Assembly: GCA_026683435.1 (NCBI GenBank)
Contig: GCA_026683435.1_4866.1
Direction: 5' to 3' (one strand)
Origin: a phage
Length of the DNA: 64,000 nt
Below the pieces are notes generated by a model. The model did no database searches. It saw nothing but the letters and a program-made list of their open reading frames with translations, and was not told the DNA's origin. The translations under genes and the position numbers were made by a program. This document shows positions 9,209 to 63,927 of the stretch, piece by piece. Numbering within the stretch: the first letter of the stretch is position 1; each line of letters starts with the position of its first letter.

Positions 9209-11316
9209 TTCATCCTCTGTCGTTGGATTAGCTCTTTCAAGCTTTCCATCGATGCGACGTTACGAACGTCAGTGTTGAGTTGAGAGACGAGCGCTTGAAT
9301 ACGATTCTTGTACATGAGCTGTTGTACCGGGTCGGCTACAACTTGACTCTGCCTAATCATCGTTTCAATTTGCCCCATCAGTTGTTGTTGCTTTTCTTCT
9401 TCCTCGACTGCAGCCTCTTCATCGAATTCACCTGCCATGCCCCCAAGCATATTGCGGTTGCGCATCATCAGTCGGCTGTTACTTATACCGTAGTGGCCTA
9501 AGTTGTTGCCGAACAGAAGTAACCACATTGCCAGAAGCCAGGATATTACCAGGTCATCGTGACCGGATGCACGGTGGTCTATGCGCCCGTTTCGTTCGAC
9601 GAGACCGAGGATTTGGTCGATCAATTCGCCTGACCGCAGTAAGTCCGCAGAAAGACGCAACGCCGTGGTAAATACTTCACCATACAACTTACGGCGTTTA
9701 TCCTGGTCGGTTGAGAAACCGATGTATTTACGGAATTTGTCCCAGAAGCGCTCTGGACTGCCCACAGGGCCACGATGGAACTCTTTGTAAAGTTCATCGT
9801 TCCTTGAGTAATCCTGGGTCACTTTCACGTACAAACGACGATGCAAATCGCGAACCTTAGATTGCAGCTGCAGTATAATGGCATCTGCTACCGAGGAGCC
9901 GGTAGACCGTCGTTCCAGAATGAGTACCGTGTTCGGATATTCGATCATGAAGTCTGCTAAGTGAATCGCAAACCCGATGACGTTTGTTTCGTTCACGGTG
10001 AGCTTGCCGGCATATTCGGCAGTGACAGAGTTGACGATTGACATGGCAATGGCGTCCCGCCCCACGGCTTCGGAAGTATCCAAACCGATGATGTGGCGGT
10101 CTTGCATTTTAACCAGCATCTGTTCTTCAGTGTAATACCAATCCGTTACGTAGTTGGAAGCAGAGATAATTTTCTGTGCTGCCCGAATACGCGAGGCGTT
10201 CATACGTCTTGCATCATCGCCTGAGAACGGTTTGTTGTAACCACCGGTTGTCCATTCACCACCGAAGTCACGGCGGATTTGGTCTAGTGTACCTGGGGCG
10301 TTCGCAATCATATCTGCGAGTTCTTCGTCCGTGGTACCGAGTTGGCGGTGGTTGTATTTCACGTAGAACATGATACGTGGAATCTTCGCAGTAGAGCCTT
10401 TGCGAATCATGTCAATCAGTTGTGCACGAGTCGGAATGTCGATATACCGTTCATCCCACGAAATCCCCGACGTCATCAGGCTGTACATGTACTCGCCTTC
10501 TTCTGTCGCCAAATCCCCAGGCGTTGTTGCGAAGACGTTGCCGTATGGAACACCTTCGGCTTCGTTAATACGACGCGCCGCAGTACCCGATGCTAGTGCA
10601 GCGGGGAGGATATGGTGGATGTTGTTGGTAAACGGTCCTTCATCCGAGAACAGGCGTCCGGCTGTGAGTCCACGGCCTACCCCGTTCGCAGCTTCCTTAT
10701 CGTTTTGACCGATGCCGGTGATAAGTTTGTTACCCTGTGCTAGACAAGCAAATGTCTCACGGTTATCAGGATCGTCCGGATGATGAGGCCAGAGATAATC
10801 CGGTAACGCGTTACGCAGTTGTTTCATTTTGTTGATAGTTTCTTCACGCAGGGCAGGACCCTTCGTGATAAGAATCGTACGTGAGTTCTCCAGGAAGCGC
10901 ATCAGCCACAATAGCAATGCGGACATCCCGACAGTCTTACCATGCTGACGGAGAAACTCGATAGCGGCGTCGATGTTGTTGAAGAAAATCCAATACATCG
11001 AAAAGTTACCGCGGTCTAGACGAAACGGCATCCCGTTCTTTACACCATCCGCAGGGACCCGGACACACTCACGGAAGAAGTACCATGGGTTTTCCGCACA
11101 CTCCGTAACAATCATCGCTTTTTGTTCGAGTGTTAAATCCGGGCTAAACGGATCAACACCACGGAGTTCGGGATTGTGTAATGCCAGGTGGACGTACCAA
11201 TGCTGGACACCTAATCCTTGTAGTGTTGTGGCGAATTGAAGGAAGTGCACGTTTGGTGTGACATCGTCAACAATCGCCCCCGGATAGTGTCGCCAATCGT
11301 TTTTTCGCAGTATCAT
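9205..11316 (-). CDS. terL: terminase large subunit
   Basis: Deviant Walker A LRQHGKTVG as in T4 gp17-type terminases; C-terminal nuclease-like GHDDLVISW motif; 703 aa. Confidence 0.75.
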   Translation of the reverse strand: MILRKNDWRHYPGAIVDDVTPNVHFLQFATTLQGLGVQHWYVHLALHNPELRGVDPFSPDLTLEQKAMIVTECAENPWYFFRECVRVPADGVKNGMPFRLDRGNFSMYWIFFNNIDAAIEFLRQHGKTVGMSALLLWLMRFLENSRTILITKGPALREETINKMKQLRNALPDYLWPHHPDDPDNRETFACLAQGNKLITGIGQNDKEAANGVGRGLTAGRLFSDEGPFTNNIHHILPAALASGTAARRINEAEGVPYGNVFATTPGDLATEEGEYMYSLMTSGISWDERYIDIPTRAQLIDMIRKGSTAKIPRIMFYVKYNHRQLGTTDEELADMIANAPGTLDQIRRDFGGEWTTGGYNKPFSGDDARRMNASRIRAAQKIISASNYVTDWYYTEEQMLVKMQDRHIIGLDTSEAVGRDAIAMSIVNSVTAEYAGKLTVNETNVIGFAIHLADFMIEYPNTVLILERRSTGSSVADAIILQLQSKVRDLHRRLYVKVTQDYSRNDELYKEFHRGPVGSPERFWDKFRKYIGFSTDQDKRRKLYGEVFTTALRLSADLLRSGELIDQILGLVERNGRIDHRASGHDDLVISWLLAMWLLLFGNNLGHYGISNSRLMMRNRNMLGGMAGEFDEEAAVEEEEKQQQLMGQIETMIRQSQVVADPVQQLMYKNRIQALVSQLNTDVRNVASMESLKELIQRQRMK

Positions 11317-56221: not shown

Positions 56222-57715
56222 TTATTTCTTCTTAGTCAAGAACTTAGGTTCCAGACCATCCACGGCCATCGCCAGTAATGACATTGCTGTTAAGCAACGC
56301 TTACCACCTTTGACTTCCTGATCCTTGAACATCCAGTATTCCACTGTATTGTCCAGAATTTCATTCCAGTCCCACTTTTCGTCGATAACTTTATAAAGCT
56401 CCGCCGGTGAGAGATGGTACTTCATTTCCAGTCGGTGGTAGTTATTCTGCATGTACGCTAGTGCGGCGGTGATTTCCAACGCACGGCGCAAACGCGGGTT
56501 GCTGTCACACATGTCGCGAATCGTGGTACGCATGAAAGATGTACCAGGTAGCAAATCGAGGGTATAGTTAGCACCACTACGTTTGTAGCCCCATTCATCT
56601 TTCAGTGTGTCGCTCAGGTAATGCCACAGAGAGAGGTGATAAAGCAGACCCATCTCCTGCGAGAAGACCATTTTGAACTTAACGCCTGTGTGACCACCCT
56701 TCGCACGGTACTGCGTGAAAACAATTTCTTTCAGGTCGTTCACCGAAGCATTCATTGCTTTCGAACGCGCAGTCGGGTATTTCTCTTCGTTTACACCGGT
56801 CTTCGCGTTGTAAGTCTGATCCTGCTTCAACTCACCAGACTTGGTTGCAACCAGCAGGGAGTTAGTTAAGAACGACAACTGACGGCGCGGGATACCCGCA
56901 AACTTCAGATCATCGCCTGCATCGTCCAGCAGTTTACCGTTCGCCTTCGGTCCACCACGGCCACCTGCCGCCATTGCTTTACCCGCATCGTCGGCCAACT
57001 GAGCAACGAAGCCCATATAGAAACCACCACGCGCAAACGCAGACGGCCAACGGCTCATCATATTCGATTTCTGCAACGCATCGTGGGCGTTCAGGATGTT
57101 CTGTTCAGAATCACCGACTTCTGATTTGGCATGTTTCTCTTCCAGGGAAGAAGTGTGCCATTCGGACAGGGAGTCAATCGAGTACAACCACGGGTCGAGA
57201 ATCTTTTTCGCAGAGCGACGGATTGGGTCCGGGAACGGTGTTTCGCGTGCCTTACCAGCCATGTACTCTTTGAAACGTTTTTCGACTTCGTCACGGATAT
57301 AAGCAGAGTAATACTCCTCACCCGCCATGATATCCGAGCCAACCATGTTGTAACGACCTTCGTGGATCAGGTCCAGCACGCCGCCCGTTGGTGGTACTTC
57401 TAATCCGTTTGCTTTCGCTGCGGAAATGTACCCTGTTTCCAGACGACTTAATGCTGCCGTAACTTCGGTATCATATTTCGATCCCCAGGCTGCATTATAA
57501 CGTTGCAGAATCATGAAAATACAGAAGTCCAATAAGGTGGACTTAAAGGTATTCCCACGACCTGCGAAGCCCATGATGTGGGCAAAACCACCGTTGAGGT
57601 AGTACAAACCATCTTCCCCGCGCTCGTAGTTACCGAGAGCGTGGTCCATGATGGTATATACGTTAAAACGAGGGCGAATCACTTCACCCATGACTTGTTT
57701 AGCTGGACCTGCCAT
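56222..57715 (-). CDS. hypothetical protein (497 aa), possible deviant P-loop ATPase
   Basis: Long ORF; GFAGRGNTFKST loosely resembles deviant Walker A of recombinase-type ATPases; tentative. Confidence 0.5.
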   Translation of the reverse strand: MAGPAKQVMGEVIRPRFNVYTIMDHALGNYERGEDGLYYLNGGFAHIMGFAGRGNTFKSTLLDFCIFMILQRYNAAWGSKYDTEVTAALSRLETGYISAAKANGLEVPPTGGVLDLIHEGRYNMVGSDIMAGEEYYSAYIRDEVEKRFKEYMAGKARETPFPDPIRRSAKKILDPWLYSIDSLSEWHTSSLEEKHAKSEVGDSEQNILNAHDALQKSNMMSRWPSAFARGGFYMGFVAQLADDAGKAMAAGGRGGPKANGKLLDDAGDDLKFAGIPRRQLSFLTNSLLVATKSGELKQDQTYNAKTGVNEEKYPTARSKAMNASVNDLKEIVFTQYRAKGGHTGVKFKMVFSQEMGLLYHLSLWHYLSDTLKDEWGYKRSGANYTLDLLPGTSFMRTTIRDMCDSNPRLRRALEITAALAYMQNNYHRLEMKYHLSPAELYKVIDEKWDWNEILDNTVEYWMFKDQEVKGGKRCLTAMSLLAMAVDGLEPKFLTKKK

Positions 57716-58128: not shown

Positions 58129-58884
58129 ATGAATGTTAATCCACTTGCAGCGTTGTCGGGCTTTGTTGCCAAAGCATCCACGATTCTGCCTAAAGCCTTT
58201 AGCGGCTCTCAACAGGAACTCGCGCTGACCACCTATGACGACATGTCTGATGTGTCCAAGTGGATGCAGCAAGAGAAGTTTTTAAACTTTACCGGAATGC
58301 TTGTACCCGTACCACCGGGCTTCAACACGTATGTGATGGACCACATAGAACGGTTGGAATCTGTATGGGCTGTGCTCCAGAAGATTCAGGAAGGGGTTTT
58401 AAGTCCCATCGACAAACGTTTCGGCGCGATGACCCACGACCTGGGCATGTTAACTCTGCCGATTGGGTTTAAGTTCAAAGACCTGAACTATCCACTGAAA
58501 AACATTAACCCGAAAGACCTGGTTGAGAAACTGGCGAAGTCGTACACCAACAATGTGATCGACCAGCGTGCGATTGAAAAGACCTACCACAGTGCAGGTG
58601 AGATTGACGTTGCGTTTAATCGTGCCAAAGCGCTGAACCTGGAAGTGACTAAGAAACTCCAGAAAGGTATTGACCGTACAGTTGAAAGCATCAACGTCTC
58701 TGTAGACATTATCTCTAATTCACAAGTCCATCCTAATGTGGCGGCAGAGTTAGTGAAAATGGCTGACATGGGTGCTGACTGGGTTGAGCTGTTCGGACTG
58801 TTTATGAAACAGATTAATGAACTGACAGAATGCCTGAACGTAACCGGTGATCGCCTCAAGACCCTGAAAGCAAACAAAAAATAA
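58129..58884 (+). CDS. hypothetical protein (251 aa)
   Basis: ORF; lone plus-strand gene, followed by a terminator. Confidence 0.55.
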   Translation: MNVNPLAALSGFVAKASTILPKAFSGSQQELALTTYDDMSDVSKWMQQEKFLNFTGMLVPVPPGFNTYVMDHIERLESVWAVLQKIQEGVLSPIDKRFGAMTHDLGMLTLPIGFKFKDLNYPLKNINPKDLVEKLAKSYTNNVIDQRAIEKTYHSAGEIDVAFNRAKALNLEVTKKLQKGIDRTVESINVSVDIISNSQVHPNVAAELVKMADMGADWVELFGLFMKQINELTECLNVTGDRLKTLKANKK

Positions 58885-58940
58885 AAAAAAATAAGCATTA
58901 CCCACTCCCATAAGGGGAGTGGGTAGGCTTTATTTTATTT
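58871..58940. terminator. bidirectional intrinsic terminator (tacccactccc-ataa-ggggagtgggta)
   Basis: 11-12-bp stem 58899-58925, A-run upstream and ctttattttattt downstream; between convergent genes. Confidence 0.7.
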
Positions 58941-59858
58941 GCATTTAGAACCGTTGACAAATGTCGGCGGTATCCATTTCAAAATCTTTGTCCGATTCCC
59001 GTCACGTGGACCGAGCCAGTAAGTACGCCAGTGTGCACGACGCATATGCGCACATCTGCTACCTTGTGTTCTTTTCTCCGTATCAGTATCAAATTCTTCA
59101 AGATACTCGCTTTGTGCTTTTACGGTGGAGAGGACAGTCGGTTTAGATTTTGGTTCAATGTGGTAATTGGCGATACGTTTCTTTCCAGTTAATTGTCTCA
59201 GTTTGACGGGTGTAGGGTTGTGCGGGATCAGTGAGAATGTAAACATGGTAGCGCCGACAATGCGTAACGTTTTCTCATTGGCCGGCGTACCAGTTTCCGC
59301 CACACGCAAGGATACAAAGCCGTCACCCACGTCCACGATTTCAAAGGTTTCCCCCTCGATACGTTTTCCAAAAATCATCATTGTTAAACAATCTTTCCCT
59401 TTAAACATTCGCCGACCGAAAACGTAAGTCTTTTCTTGGATACCGATATCTTTAGCGCGATAGCACACTGAAAAGGAGACGGCCCAACCGGGAATCTTGT
59501 CTATCCAGCTGCGTGGTATCTCAGTGAGAACGTCGCCAAGTAGAACTTGTTCAAAAATATTAAGATCAAATTCCATTTGGATACCCCCGTATCGCCAGCC
59601 GTAGGCAAGAGACAGGAAGTCTGCGGTGCATTCTTCGGCGAAGCAGTTCTTTAGGAACGCCTCAATCGGTATAAAGTGCTGGCCTATCTCGCCACAATGG
59701 GCTATTGCGTATTGCTCGATGATGGCGGGATCTCCACTTCTGGATTTCACACGTTCGTCGATTTTAGTAAGACCGTTTAAGAAATTACTCGGGGATTCGC
59801 GCATACCGATTACATCTACATTTACCGATTCTGCCAAATCAAAAAGAAAGCTGTCCAT
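58935..59858 (-). CDS. hypothetical protein (307 aa)
   Basis: ORF; AAGGAG RBS; P2 motif just upstream. Confidence 0.55.
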   Translation of the reverse strand: MDSFLFDLAESVNVDVIGMRESPSNFLNGLTKIDERVKSRSGDPAIIEQYAIAHCGEIGQHFIPIEAFLKNCFAEECTADFLSLAYGWRYGGIQMEFDLNIFEQVLLGDVLTEIPRSWIDKIPGWAVSFSVCYRAKDIGIQEKTYVFGRRMFKGKDCLTMMIFGKRIEGETFEIVDVGDGFVSLRVAETGTPANEKTLRIVGATMFTFSLIPHNPTPVKLRQLTGKKRIANYHIEPKSKPTVLSTVKAQSEYLEEFDTDTEKRTQGSRCAHMRRAHWRTYWLGPRDGNRTKILKWIPPTFVNGSKCK

Positions 59859-59875: not shown

Positions 59876-59889
59876 TAATGGTCGATTAA
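59876..59889 (-). promoter_or_regulatory. motif P2 (TAATGGTCGATTAA), copy 3
   Basis: 18-31 nt upstream of the start at 59858, just downstream (minus sense) of a terminator hairpin. Confidence 0.45.
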
Positions 59890-59922
59890 AATAAAACTAC
59901 GGACACTCCGAAGAGTGTCCGT
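59885..59922 (-). terminator. intrinsic terminator acggacactc-cgaa-gagtgtccgt
   Basis: 10-bp stem with CGAA loop directly after the stop at 59927; A-rich on plus strand upstream. Confidence 0.55.
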
Positions 59923-59926
59923 TTAA

Positions 59927-60469
59927 CTAGAATTTACTAATAGCGAGTGGCTGCATTGGCTCAATCACAATCAGTATTTCTTTCAGACGTGAAACGATAT
60001 GCTCCCAGACCTGCGCTTCGAGATGACGTAGCATAGTGGTGAACTCCTCCATATACATCTTTTTATACTCTTCGCGGTTGAGATTTTCCCACGCTTCTTT
60101 CAATGGGCCTGCTTCCGGTCCAGACATCTTAATCATCATTTCGATGTCCTTCATTTCATCAAAGGCTTTACCGACCTTATCAATAACCTCATCGGTCTTG
60201 AGTTCGAGTGAGAAGCGACCCATCTTAGACTGCAGGAAGCCGTCTTCAATGTCTTCGTCGTTGTATTCGAAACACGCAATACGTTGCGCGAGTTGATGAA
60301 CTTCATTTACCGCGATATTGACATACGCTGCAGAGATAAGCCCAGCGAGGTGCTGACGATCGATATTCTTCGGTATTAGATAGTCTTCACACTTACGCTT
60401 AAACTCGAACAACGCCGCTGGAAATATTTCACGAAATTCGTCATCGAGTAAGTCAATGAATATCTTCAT
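59927..60469 (-). CDS. hypothetical protein, paralog family member A (180 aa)
   Basis: ORF; shares N-terminal MKIFIDL and length with the next two genes. Confidence 0.55.
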   Translation of the reverse strand: MKIFIDLLDDEFREIFPAALFEFKRKCEDYLIPKNIDRQHLAGLISAAYVNIAVNEVHQLAQRIACFEYNDEDIEDGFLQSKMGRFSLELKTDEVIDKVGKAFDEMKDIEMMIKMSGPEAGPLKEAWENLNREEYKKMYMEEFTTMLRHLEAQVWEHIVSRLKEILIVIEPMQPLAISKF

Positions 60470-60479
60470 TCAACACCCT

Positions 60480-61049
60480 CTATAGTTGAAAACTGAAACG
60501 CAAATGGATTTCCCTTACCGTATCTACCACTTTCCGATAAACGTCTCCCATCACATCCCTCAAATCACGCTCAAGCAGATACACGATTTTCTCACACAGC
60601 TCGCTGCTAAAAGGATAACGTGTCACTGTATAACTGCCCGGATGTTTTTCGGCATGTTCGATGATTGCTTTATCACTAACGGCATACGCGGCAACACGCT
60701 TGCCGTCGTCACGATAGACTACATAAGCGATGTTGTCGAAAGACTCGACGTGGCGTCGAAAATTCGCTACCAAATCCGAAACATCATCGCGTTCAGTCAG
60801 CGAAGTTATTCTGCCAGCATAAACCCCATCGACCAGATCGGCATCAGTAATCTCAACCTGTAAAACGCGCTCCGTTAACGCAATCAAATCTTTCAAAAAG
60901 GGATTGAGCAGCAGCAACATGATGTGCTTTCGATGTTCTTCAGGCATGATACTCTCAAGCATGGCGTCGTAATCTCTGTTGAGAGTTTCGATGAGGCCTT
61001 TCCACATTTCCTCATGCCCAGGCGTGGTCAGATCAAGGTAGATTTTCAT
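60480..61049 (-). CDS. hypothetical protein, paralog family member B (189 aa)
   Basis: ORF; N-terminal MKIYLDL. Confidence 0.55.
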   Translation of the reverse strand: MKIYLDLTTPGHEEMWKGLIETLNRDYDAMLESIMPEEHRKHIMLLLLNPFLKDLIALTERVLQVEITDADLVDGVYAGRITSLTERDDVSDLVANFRRHVESFDNIAYVVYRDDGKRVAAYAVSDKAIIEHAEKHPGSYTVTRYPFSSELCEKIVYLLERDLRDVMGDVYRKVVDTVREIHLRFSFQL

Positions 61050-61585
61050 TCAATAACCTCCCCATATTTCTCGCCGAGGTACAACAGCTCACGGCGACAG
61101 ATAGCCAGCACTTTCATTTCCGCTTCACGATACAACTTGGTGATTTTGTCAATGATTGGCTGGTCAACGATATCAGACCATGTTACCGTGTCCGTAACGT
61201 TTGACGATTGTCCGTTAATGACCACAGCAACGTACGTCTCGCCGAGGTTCTCTTGATGTAACCCCGCCAGAGATTCACCGACCTTATCAAAGGCTTCACT
61301 CAACAAGTCGGTGATTTGGTCCGTCCCTTCTACCAGTTCAAAACGATGGGGATAGTTCAGAATGTTACGCAGCCGCGTGAACATACGTTCAATAAGCTGA
61401 TTTACCATATCCCCAGTGTCACAGATAGTCACATCTACACCCGAACCTATTTCGTCAGACAAACGATTTTCGTGGACGGCCAACGCATCGTGAAGTTCAA
61501 ATTCCACGTCACGTTTTAATCCTAACAGAATTTCATCTAGCTGACGTCTCGACTCCGACAGAGCGAAGTCAATTACGATTTGCAT
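61046..61585 (-). CDS. hypothetical protein, paralog family member C (179 aa)
   Basis: ORF; N-terminal MQIVIDF; ATGA-coupled to member B. Confidence 0.55.
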   Translation of the reverse strand: MQIVIDFALSESRRQLDEILLGLKRDVEFELHDALAVHENRLSDEIGSGVDVTICDTGDMVNQLIERMFTRLRNILNYPHRFELVEGTDQITDLLSEAFDKVGESLAGLHQENLGETYVAVVINGQSSNVTDTVTWSDIVDQPIIDKITKLYREAEMKVLAICRRELLYLGEKYGEVIE

Positions 61586-61595
61586 CTAATGCTCC

Positions 61596-62003
61596 TTAAA
61601 AGTTACTTAACTCGGGCTGCGTATACCAGTATCTGCACGCTACGAGATCCACAACGTTATATTTCAGTTGTCCACCGTGCTGTGACGTGTCTGCCAATTC
61701 ACGCGCAAGCTTGAACGCCAAGTCTCCACGGTTGTCGAGGATAAGCAACACAACACGTTGCACCTCATTAAAGATATCCAGTTCACGTAAACAACTGTAG
61801 CGGTCGCTAAGATGCTTAATAACGCCTTTATAAACATCTCCTGGTACAGCAGTGCCATTTTCTGCCGCGTGGAATGAAACAAGCACGATTTTAATTAAAA
61901 TCTCGACAACCATGGAGTATATCATTCCACGGTTGCCGTTAATTTCCACATGCTTTAGATACTCTTGCAAGTCCATCAATGACTCGCTATACACCTTTAA
62001 CAT
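61596..62003 (-). CDS. hypothetical protein (~135 aa)
   Basis: ORF; start placed at ATG 62003 to avoid a 71-nt overlap. Confidence 0.45.
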   Translation of the reverse strand: MLKVYSESLMDLQEYLKHVEINGNRGMIYSMVVEILIKIVLVSFHAAENGTAVPGDVYKGVIKHLSDRYSCLRELDIFNEVQRVVLLILDNRGDLAFKLARELADTSQHGGQLKYNVVDLVACRYWYTQPELSNF

Positions 62004-62013
62004 ACCGCCCCCA

Positions 62014-62385
62014 TTAGCTGGTAGCTGGCCAAACCCCCGGCGATGGAATCGCATCGTATCCACGCCATTTCTTAATGGCAACAAGGCTAGTGCCTGGGGA
62101 GCCGTCTAAATCGAAACCGACGGTTGCAACCACATCAACTTCGGTTTCTAAGTTAGAGTGGCCGATCGGAGAGAGGTGGGAGAAGCTGACGACTTTACCG
62201 CCCTGGATGGCGGTATCTCGAACTATACGAGCCATCTGTCTTATTTCTTGAGAAACTGGGCCGCGTAGGGTGGTTACCCGCGACGATAACGTCAACCAGT
62301 TTTCGCTCTCGGGTGCGACTATGTACAGAATAGTCCCTTCTTTAAAGTATTGTTTAACCAGTGTTTCAAATTCGTCTTGCGTCAT
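62014..62385 (-). CDS. hypothetical protein (123 aa)
   Basis: ORF. Confidence 0.45.
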   Translation of the reverse strand: MTQDEFETLVKQYFKEGTILYIVAPESENWLTLSSRVTTLRGPVSQEIRQMARIVRDTAIQGGKVVSFSHLSPIGHSNLETEVDVVATVGFDLDGSPGTSLVAIKKWRGYDAIPSPGVWPATS

Positions 62386-62398
62386 GTTAAATACTCCT

Positions 62399-63133
62399 TC
62401 AGTAGTTTAGTTTCTCAGAGACTTCTTTACGGATGCGACACATCACCACCATCGCACCATTCGGAATTTGGCTCACGCAGTTATCCGTGTAAAACTTACC
62501 TTCACAGAGATAAAAGTCCAGACACATGGCATCGGTCAGTTCGTGCCACAGTGTGCCGAAACCGTACTGCCAAGGGCCAGAATGAACGACATCGTAATCG
62601 CCTTCAGTTATGCCAAAAGCGGCAGTAGCGGAAGACCACAGTGTTGAGGAGGTGGTATAAGTGTCATACCAGTAACCGAGCAGACGATGGTTACGACGTA
62701 TCTCAGCTAACCGCTCGTACATTGGGATGAATACATCTTCCACCTGCGTGACAAAATCAGCCAGCATCAACTTTTCCGTGAACCACTCGATCCACGCAAA
62801 GATTTGTTCTTCAACGTCTTGTTGACTTAACCCCGTGGAAGTGATACCTTCTTCGTAGCTGTAACCTTCGTAGACGTCAACAACATTAATCTCTACATGT
62901 TCTAGCGTGAACAACCGTTCGGTGTTGATGCAGTCGTACATCTCTTGTAACCACGCAGTGAAGACTTCTATACAGACGTTGATGGCTGTATACTTGAACT
63001 CGTCACGCAGAGGATACCACTGTGGGTTATCCTTTAGTTCGTTCTTCGCGAACGCGGGCCAATGCTTTTCGAACAACGCTTCAAAGAACTGGGGCGTGAG
63101 GTTTAAAAGCACTGGCACTTCGACTTTAAGCAT
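62399..63133 (-). CDS. hypothetical protein (244 aa)
   Basis: ORF; AAGGAG RBS; P1 motif 34-52 nt upstream. Confidence 0.55.
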   Translation of the reverse strand: MLKVEVPVLLNLTPQFFEALFEKHWPAFAKNELKDNPQWYPLRDEFKYTAINVCIEVFTAWLQEMYDCINTERLFTLEHVEINVVDVYEGYSYEEGITSTGLSQQDVEEQIFAWIEWFTEKLMLADFVTQVEDVFIPMYERLAEIRRNHRLLGYWYDTYTTSSTLWSSATAAFGITEGDYDVVHSGPWQYGFGTLWHELTDAMCLDFYLCEGKFYTDNCVSQIPNGAMVVMCRIRKEVSEKLNY

Positions 63134-63166
63134 CGTGAATAAATTCTCCTTAAGGTTACGTCCCTG

Positions 63167-63198
63167 TAGATAATATCTATCTCAGATTACTTTAAGAG
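63167..63198 (-). promoter_or_regulatory. motif P1 (TAGATAATATCTATCTCAG ATTACTTTAAGAG), copy 4
   Basis: Same spacing to the gene start (63133) as copy 3. Confidence 0.45.
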
Positions 63199-63927
63199 AT
63201 GCAAGAAGCGTGCTGCCTGTTCTGTAAAGTGAAAATACTCGATGGTATCAGGTTCGTCCGAGTGAATGTCATCCGGGTCCAGCAGGTAGCCCGAGATATC
63301 ATCCGTTAAAACCCAAGCGTCTCCCTGCAGGAAAATACCCATCGGTTTTTCTACCACGGACATCACCAAGTCGGAATAAGAGTTACCTTCTGCTACCTTT
63401 ACAATGTCTTCACACGGGTCAACAATATACAGGTTGCAGAGACTACGATCTTTAAGACTGCGATGAAACATCGCTCGATCGTACCAAATAACCTGAGAAC
63501 AATTATCTTCGTCACCCGCCACATCGACCAACTCTGTCCAGAACCGATGTAAGAACCAGTTCAACGCACCGGTTATTAGCTCGTTCGGTTTCAGCATTCT
63601 AACGTGTTCGTCGTACAACTCTTCCATTGTCCAGATTCGACAATGCTCACGATCGATTGTCGGTAGCGGAGGTATTTGCGGCGGGACTTGTTTAGGCATC
63701 GGTTCATCACATCTTGCGTTGTAACGCGCAATTGTTTCGGTAACCAGCTCTGCCACAACATCACAAGCCGCTTCAAATCCCCACTTGTACAACACGTCGT
63801 AATCTTCCATGGGCGCAGCACCAAACTCACGGTTCGTTGCCATCCACGACATCCATCCGTATTGCTCCACACAGTTAATCAGACTTTGTGTGTGGAGCGT
63901 GAGCGATTCACTCACGACTCGCAACAT
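63187..63927 (-). CDS. hypothetical protein (~246 aa)
   Basis: ORF; start placed at ATG 63927 with AGAGGTG RBS. Confidence 0.5.
   Translation of the reverse strand: MLRVVSESLTLHTQSLINCVEQYGWMSWMATNREFGAAPMEDYDVLYKWGFEAACDVVAELVTETIARYNARCDEPMPKQVPPQIPPLPTIDREHCRIWTMEELYDEHVRMLKPNELITGALNWFLHRFWTELVDVAGDEDNCSQVIWYDRAMFHRSLKDRSLCNLYIVDPCEDIVKVAEGNSYSDLVMSVVEKPMGIFLQGDAWVLTDDISGYLLDPDDIHSDEPDTIEYFHFTEQAARFLHLLK

Follow-up and report, generated by a model that had tools for sequence, protein, structure and literature searches.

The 64-kb phage window analyzed here, from NCBI GenBank assembly GCA_026683435.1 (contig GCA_026683435.1_4866.1), carries three consecutive small genes on the minus strand, which we call C, B, and A in the order of their transcription. 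They form a gene array of SPN3US-like jumbo phages in which, we infer, B is an extra member that is found only in this phage and was acquired by recombination and not by local duplication of A. An earlier note on this DNA had described three minus-strand genes of 180, 189, and 179 amino acids (aa), and these are indeed present, together with a terminator:

61046 to 61585, minus strand: gene C, an open reading frame (ORF) of 179 aa; ortholog of SPN3US gp212, family phrog_8379

60480 to 61049, minus strand: gene B, an ORF of 189 aa; a divergent extra member of the gp213 family, phrog_9806

59927 to 60469, minus strand: gene A, an ORF of 180 aa; ortholog of SPN3US gp213, family phrog_9806

59899 to 59922, minus strand: intrinsic terminator directly 3′ of A, with a 10-bp G+C-rich stem, a UUCG loop, and a U tract, found by a consensus scan

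The trio closes an operon at its 3′ end, with A as the last gene; the other products of this operon include an exonuclease and an RNase H-like protein. The start of B overlaps the stop codon of C (ATGA), and a GGAGG motif lies 9 nucleotides (nt) 5′ of the B start. The terminator after A is strong (RNA folding energy, −18.1 kcal/mol; z = −5.55; 0 of 200 shuffled sequences as stable) and marks the end of the operon. In a scan for sigma-70 promoters, sites were no more frequent than expected by chance.

The region around the trio is 96 to 98% identical at the DNA level to jumbo phages of the Seoulvirus SPN3US group, with Escherichia phage EC001 and Salmonella phage JN03 as the best matches, and the best phage matches span only 86% of a 4-kb query. 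C shares 97% amino acid identity with SPN3US_0212, and A is 96 to 98% identical to its orthologs in the SPN3US group (96 to 97% to SPN3US_0213). In SPN3US, these orthologs, gp212 and gp213, are annotated as hypothetical proteins and occupy the same place, between gp211 and the head-protein gene gp214. The difference lies in B, which is absent from SPN3US, EC001, and every one of the 34 matching SPN3US-like phage records. In SPN3US and all 34 sequenced relatives, C and A instead overlap directly by 4 bp, and the same direct overlap is found in SPAsTU, pEa_SNUABM_29, two metagenomic contigs, and Erskinevirus.

When B was compared with 5.8 billion protein clusters, the sole match was B itself, and among 1.84 billion representatives it made up a cluster of its own. 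A joint profile of A and B retrieved 11 proteins from these representatives, and all credible ones came from this phage group. At the DNA level, B had no match in a collection of 50,697 phage records, even with distant blastn, and tblastn likewise returned only weak matches to the A family; no relatives of B were found in IMG/VR, GTDB genomes, or JGI metagenomes. The sole database copy of B bears an Escherichia coli protein label (a third-party annotation [TPA] record) and lies on a contig of 239,441 bp; this contig is evidently the complete genome of an SPN3US-like jumbo phage, assembled from data on a bacterial isolate.

A and B are clearly homologous over their full lengths, as judged from profile alignments. 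The phrog_9806 profile aligned with residues 1 to 180 of A (profile positions 1 to 177 of 177; E = 1.7e-65) and with residues 1 to 188 of B (profile positions 1 to 169 of 177; E = 6.8e-17), so that no other member of this family comes close to B in divergence (E = 7e-17 versus 2e-65 for A). A profile of 15 A orthologs matched B in hhalign with a probability of 98.2% (E = 5e-14 over 164 columns), and an enriched A profile did so with 98.6% (the E values over both profiles ranged from 5e-14 to 1e-15). Direct comparison of A and B by BLASTP gave 25% identity over 104 aa (E = 6e-4).

The closest relatives of B within this family are found in other phages. B is 25 to 27% identical to A orthologs of the Machinavirus type from Erwinia phages (phmmer, 1e-10), compared with 16% identity to the co-resident A, and it groups with the Machinavirus-type orthologs in a neighbor-joining tree. 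With B as the phmmer query, the co-resident A was not listed at E values up to 10. Because B is closer to the Machinavirus-type orthologs than to its neighbor, it does not appear to be a local duplicate of A. The DNA around B carries further traces of its arrival:

59880 to 61340, no strand assigned: mosaic (recombination) patch of about 1.46 kb, delimited by sliding identity, that takes in A and B entirely and about 300 nt at the 3′ end of C

61042 to 61053, minus strand: first copy of the junction repeat (TTGAATGAAAAT), across the end of C and the start of B

60462 to 60473, minus strand: second copy of the junction repeat (TTGAATGAAGAT), across the B-A spacer and the start of A

Compared with EC001 in 60-nt sliding windows, the patch is 80 to 98% identical, while both flanks are 100% identical. 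Consistent with such a patch, synonymous divergence (dS) reaches 0.44 in A and 0.21 in C, versus 0.02 to 0.14 in neighboring genes. For the A region, no sampled phage exceeds a DNA identity of 97.6%. The window contains exactly two copies of the 12-mer TTGAATGAARAT (0.01 expected by chance), one at the C/B junction and the other, 580 bp away, at the B/A junction; SPN3US and EC001 have a single copy of it, at the C/A junction. These features suggest that recombination with an unsampled relative brought in a segment of about 1.5 kb carrying B, with the conserved gene-boundary and gene-start sequence as the likely crossover site or insertion microhomology.

Three other histories of B were weighed against this one. 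B adjoins A and resembles it in size, N-terminus, and family, as would be expected if A or C had recently been duplicated in tandem at this site and the copy had since diverged. We consider this highly unlikely, given the identity values, the tree, and the phmmer result described above; the direct C/A overlap in close relatives and in SPAsTU, pEa_SNUABM_29, the metagenomic contigs, and Erskinevirus; and flanking A and C alleles that are themselves foreign to the EC001-like backbone. The "tandem expansion" proposed in the earlier note is therefore a misleading description of a gene whose nearest relatives are the Machinavirus-type A orthologs and which arrived in a recombination patch. B might instead be ancestral and have been lost elsewhere by deletion between the repeats, but parsimony favors gain. 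Lastly, B might be a decaying or nonfunctional ORF left by a junk insertion: as a singleton, its conservation is not measurable, and its codon adaptation index (0.646) is the lowest in the block. Its intact 189-aa reading frame, however, aligns with the family profile end to end, including the N- and C-terminal strands; it has the GGAGG motif and the ATGA overlap with the C stop codon; and its G+C content, both overall (GC) and at third codon positions (GC3), is like that of its neighbors, all of which makes decay very improbable. We are confident in this evolutionary and anatomical part of the account, in which B was gained by recombination.

The relationship of C to the other two genes is more distant. 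At their starts, all three proteins follow the pattern M-[KQR]-[ILV]-x-[ILVF]-[DNH]-[LFM], which occurs at none of the other candidate starts in the window (468 in total, defined as ATG-start ORFs of at least 80 aa on both strands). Since this motif was defined post hoc from A, B, and C themselves, independent data from other array families matter: N-termini of this kind mark the remaining array families of related phages (X1, X2, X3, K7, K9, and W9) without exception and are missing from every flanking gene family. In both the A and C families, residues 1 to 20 are the best-conserved block (42% and 52%, respectively, versus 11 to 43% elsewhere). All three proteins are also acidic, with isoelectric points (pI) of 4.5 to 5.2 and net charges of −10 to −17. 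The common N-terminal pattern and the acidity, both pointed out previously, are thus real properties of the trio.

The phrog_8379 profile aligned with residues 1 to 176 of C (profile positions 1 to 176 of 180; E = 6.3e-67), and neither A nor B matched it. Pairwise BLASTP was rejected as the sole arbiter of paralogy, being too weak to decide. A and C matched over 22 aa (E = 0.005), in a register about 3 to 4 residues off the DKVG example with which the earlier note had illustrated scattered internal similarity; a second local match, of A residues 85 to 106 to C residues 81 to 102, falls on equivalent strand-helix elements; and B and C gave no match. With such weak pairwise scores, including that of A and B, the DKVG example is not significant evidence on its own, and the relationship becomes clear only with profiles and structure.

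Profile comparisons placed the similarity between the families at the N-terminus. hhalign aligned the A family with the C family in register from residue 1 over 35 to 71 columns (probability, 12 to 38%; E = 3e-4 to 2e-3), whereas five control families from non-array neighbors gave E values of 0.06 to 0.6. A hidden Markov model (HMM) of the A family matched all 21 C-family proteins from residue 1 to about residue 40, with per-sequence P-like values of 7e-6 to 1e-2; the best P-like values among controls were 1.3e-4 in 1,050 shuffled sequences and 1.3e-3 in 55 non-array neighbors, and 7 of the 21 C-family proteins outscored all 1,050 shuffles. Beyond the N-terminal ~40 residues, neither hhalign nor the A-family HMM detected sequence similarity between A and C.

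Structure models of A and C were made with AlphaFold (AF2) from shallow alignments of 5 sequences and are of medium confidence. Model A has a predicted local distance difference test score (pLDDT) of 65.8 and a predicted template modeling score (pTM) of 0.59; model C, predicted to comprise four long helices and a small sheet, reached a pLDDT of 68.0 and a pTM of 0.66. In both models, an N-terminal strand, long helices, and a few short strands follow one another in a largely collinear arrangement. Model C agrees with models of its orthologs in BFVD at a template modeling (TM) score of 0.86, so the C fold is reproducible. In Foldseek searches of BFVD, the top 7 matches of model A and the top 9 of model C all came from these related phages and had the lengths of array genes, the identity of most matches being assigned from phage name, length, and percent identity. 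Model A retrieved three C-family proteins (E = 5.7e-3 with a probability of 0.98, E = 0.059, and E = 0.56), and model C retrieved two A-family proteins (E = 0.078 and 0.098; probabilities of 0.69 and 0.85). Proteins of X2 and W9 length were among the matches of both models, a protein of X3 length was matched by model A, and one of K9 length and a 164-aa Kwan protein were matched by model C. Generic four-helix-bundle proteins from the PDB differ from these proteins in that they share neither the small beta-sheet nor a common function, with sequence identities of 2 to 14%, and we regard them as nonspecific matches.

It is possible in principle that C is unrelated to A and B and that two adjacent families came to look alike at the N-terminus by convergence or by gene conversion at gene starts. 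The driver of the shared N-terminus would then be translational coupling or a recombination handle and not common ancestry of the whole proteins. Several observations fit such a history: no sequence similarity is detectable past about residue 40 to 80, the cross-family TM-scores between A and C are 0.31 to 0.44 (for models at a pLDDT of 66 to 68), C is without the C-terminal hydrophobic strand and basic tail common to most A, B, and X members, PHROGs keeps two separate families, and the junction DNA is itself conserved. We nevertheless find independent origins unlikely, as we do either driver. Searched reciprocally against the whole of BFVD, each family ranks right behind the query's own orthologs (probability, 0.69 to 0.98); secondary-structure elements are collinear, and the second BLASTP match lies on equivalent ones; and the genes are of equal size and conserved adjacency. 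Overall, C is likely a true remote paralog of A and B. It is probably an ancient one that has in common with them an N-terminal strand-helix module and probably also the helix-bundle-plus-small-sheet fold. Our view thus differs from that of PHROGs, where phrog_9806 and phrog_8379, both of unassigned function, stand apart; here, the N-terminal module and the reciprocal fold-search matches link them. Paralogy, as put forward for all three genes, is firm for A and B on the basis of hhalign and the full-length phrog_9806 alignments, and for C it is remote and probable, based on the N-terminal ~40 residues and the reciprocal Foldseek matches.

A, B, and C belong to a small group of families that is restricted to SPN3US-like jumbo phages, namely, Seoulvirus and the Erwinia-infecting Erskinevirus, Machinavirus, and Wellingtonvirus. 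C is the most widely conserved array member, with orthologs in all four genera and in new IMG/VR lineages. C (gp212) and A (gp213) form a conserved pair, with a 4-bp overlap in three of these genera. Erskinevirus and Machinavirus have the arrangement C-A-X, where X encodes about 160 to 169 aa, and Wellingtonvirus has five or more such genes. With two to five or more genes at the locus in different relatives, the copy number of the array varies. All array junctions are tight, consisting of an ATGA overlap or of TAAGGAG a few bases before the ATG.

The extra genes of Erwinia jumbo phages (Asesino gp234, pEa_SNUABM_4_00242, Huxley gp226, and Kwan/Wellington gp239 to gp242) resemble B in occupying the same locus, in encoding 157 to 169 aa with the N-terminal signature, and in their tight coupling. 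They appear in the fold-search matches of both models, and a relationship to the A family is detectable for X2 and X3 (hhalign probabilities of 93% and 75%, respectively). In contrast to B, which lies between C and A, they lie 3′ of A, and none is close to B. A new IMG/VR lineage (contigs of 220 to 225 kb) has C followed by genes of 174 and 161 aa, whose families (N174 and N161) showed no sequence link to A, B, or C. The 174-aa gene (GTG start) directly follows the C ortholog in loci L022, L025, and L026 and is missing in L024. This difference between L024 and the other three loci (about 10185 to 10727, minus strand) makes a second case, parallel to that of B, of a gene present in some phages and absent from others at this position.

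Divergent paralogs with varying copy number have precedent in this group: the virion paralog families A to C of SPN3US and phiKZ differ in copy number between related giant phages (Ali et al. 2017, PMC5694885). Those families, in contrast to gp212 and gp213, are head and tail proteins found in virions, and they have no sequence relationship to gp212 or gp213. In Asesino, an Erskinevirus with the same array, a phage nucleus has been shown experimentally, and its UvsX homolog is imported into it (PMC11724907).

Two annotation matters concern the array in other records. The annotated start of ChrisDB gp235 (L010, 2477 to 2983) probably lies 8 codons upstream of the true one: MKLIINF, the N-terminus typical of the family, starts at codon 9, and a start there produces the customary 4-bp overlap with the C ortholog. 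Several SPFM-series records (LR5359xx; e.g., SPFM8 and SPFM20) match the region only as about 30 short pieces with truncated A and C, which points to low-quality assemblies rich in frameshifts and not to genuine decay of the genes.

The ratio of nonsynonymous to synonymous divergence (dN/dS), calculated gene-wide for A and C between the window and SPN3US by the Nei-Gojobori method (NG86), was 0.03 for A and 0.07 for C and did not exceed 0.10 wherever dS was measurable. At these values, the diversifying selection suggested in the earlier note is not supported gene-wide, and A and C are constrained, functional genes under purifying selection. At longer range, A evolves faster than its core neighbors: between the window and SPAsTU, protein identity is 59% for A, compared with 88% for C, 89% for gp214, and 91% for gp216.

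Searches for known functions were uniformly negative. Profile searches of Pfam, NCBIfam, and PDB sequences with the trio proteins returned nothing significant, and no match to characterized anti-defense proteins or DNA mimics (Ocr/ArdA-like proteins or anti-CRISPRs) was found; the charge of the proteins is not extreme. gp212 and gp213 have no row in the supplement reporting SPN3US virion mass spectrometry, in which gp214 is present (PMC5694885), and they are not mentioned in PMC5105663, PMC7411985, or the accessible amber-mutant studies. Literature searches on gp212/gp213 and on paralog arrays in Chimalliviridae turned up nothing relevant, and the accessible papers report no function, phenotype, or virion presence for gp212 or gp213.

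The trio may be viewed, tentatively, as soluble, nonvirion proteins that act by binding other proteins. The N-terminal ~20 to 40 residues would provide a common docking or oligomerization module, and the fast-diverging helical body would provide specificity. Translational coupling would yield C and A (and here also B) in fixed ratios, so that they may act together, with B-like extras being exchangeable; the targets could be host factors or components of phage replication or of the phage nucleus. We hold only lightly this speculative proposal, in which the trio consists of protein-binding accessory factors and C works together with A as a coupled pair. Taking this account as a whole, with its evolutionary and anatomical part, C as a remote paralog, and the functional part, we would put its probability at roughly 0.6.

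The principal competing explanation for the array is that suggested by the earlier note, namely, an anti-defense or host-takeover array under diversifying selection, in which each member inhibits a different host defense or factor and turnover reflects an arms race. Copy number and membership do vary among close relatives, A diverges faster than core neighbors in the SPAsTU comparison, the proteins are acidic, small, and nonvirion, B is a unique acquisition, and allelic diversity is concentrated in the A region among phages that are otherwise identical. Set against this are the gene-wide dN/dS values of 0.03 to 0.07 wherever dS is unsaturated; the retention of the coupled C/A pair across four genera, which is more typical of a clade core than of dispensable accessory genes; the lack of any match to known anti-defense proteins, Pfam, NCBIfam, or the PDB; and a moderate net charge, unlike that of DNA mimics. 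On balance, an arms-race array seems doubtful to us.

A bolder extension of the protein-binding proposal would make the locus a cassette-exchange site, at which divergent "specificity" bodies are swapped into a translationally coupled complex; we think this improbable. Together, the conserved ~40-residue N-terminal strand-helix module and the conserved boundary DNA would then act as a shared docking or oligomerization handle for the proteins and as a recombination handle for the DNA, a pairing that we rate as no more likely. If cassette exchange did occur, it would amount to a polymorphic-effector-like system for jumbo-phage host adaptation, and B would be a newly captured cassette.

For most genes of nucleus-forming jumbo phages, no function is known. 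The present work defines a clade-restricted array of variable copy number, made up of the core pair gp212/gp213 and exchangeable extras, and documents one clean, recent gain event, that of B, with visible junctions. It thereby offers an example of accessory-gene shuffling at conserved gene boundaries and a compact set of targets for knockout, localization, and interaction studies in SPN3US, a genetic model phage. What is new is B, a unique member of a known but uncharacterized phage family; it is a modest evolutionary curiosity and reveals no new mechanism or type of system, nor any known defense or anti-defense activity. The original observation of three related genes is confirmed, and its interpretation is supported in part: the paralogy of A and B stands, tandem expansion is misleading, and gene-wide diversifying selection is not supported.

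Several neighboring genes deserve mention. Upstream of C in the same operon, at 61596 to 63927 on the minus strand, lie four genes (orthologs of gp208 to gp211) without any known family. The adjacent gp208 and gp209 proteins are strongly acidic (pI of about 4.5; net charge of −21 to −24) and each about 245 aa long, and BLASTP found no significant similarity between them. Erwinia relatives have an extra gene of about 205 to 278 aa between the gp210 and gp211 orthologs. A program-called ORF of 162 aa (61596 to 62084, minus strand) begins with TTG and overlaps the gp210 ortholog at the latter's 3′ end; the real start of this ORF is probably the ATG at 62003 (135 aa), matching the SPN3US and EC001 annotations.

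Downstream of A, at 58935 to 59858 on the minus strand, a presence/absence gene encodes a basic protein of 307 aa (phrog_6160) with no match in Pfam or NCBIfam and a conserved C-terminal W-I-P-(P/A)-T-F-V motif. It is flanked by the terminator that follows A and, at 58898 to 58926, by a bidirectional terminator. This gene is present in the window, EC001, Asesino, ChrisDB, and pEa_SNUABM_4, is absent in SPN3US and phiEaH2, and occurs as a tandem duplicate in IMG/VR loci L022 to L026. The convergent neighbor at 58129 to 58884 on the plus strand is orthologous to gp214 of SPN3US, which is an essential head protein. The mass spectrometry supplement of PMC5694885 lists gp214 with 269 aa (186782 to 187591), versus 251 aa in the GenBank annotation, so that its true start may lie upstream. 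Farther along, at 56222 to 57715, a gene of 497 aa is the ortholog of the UvsX-like gp216.

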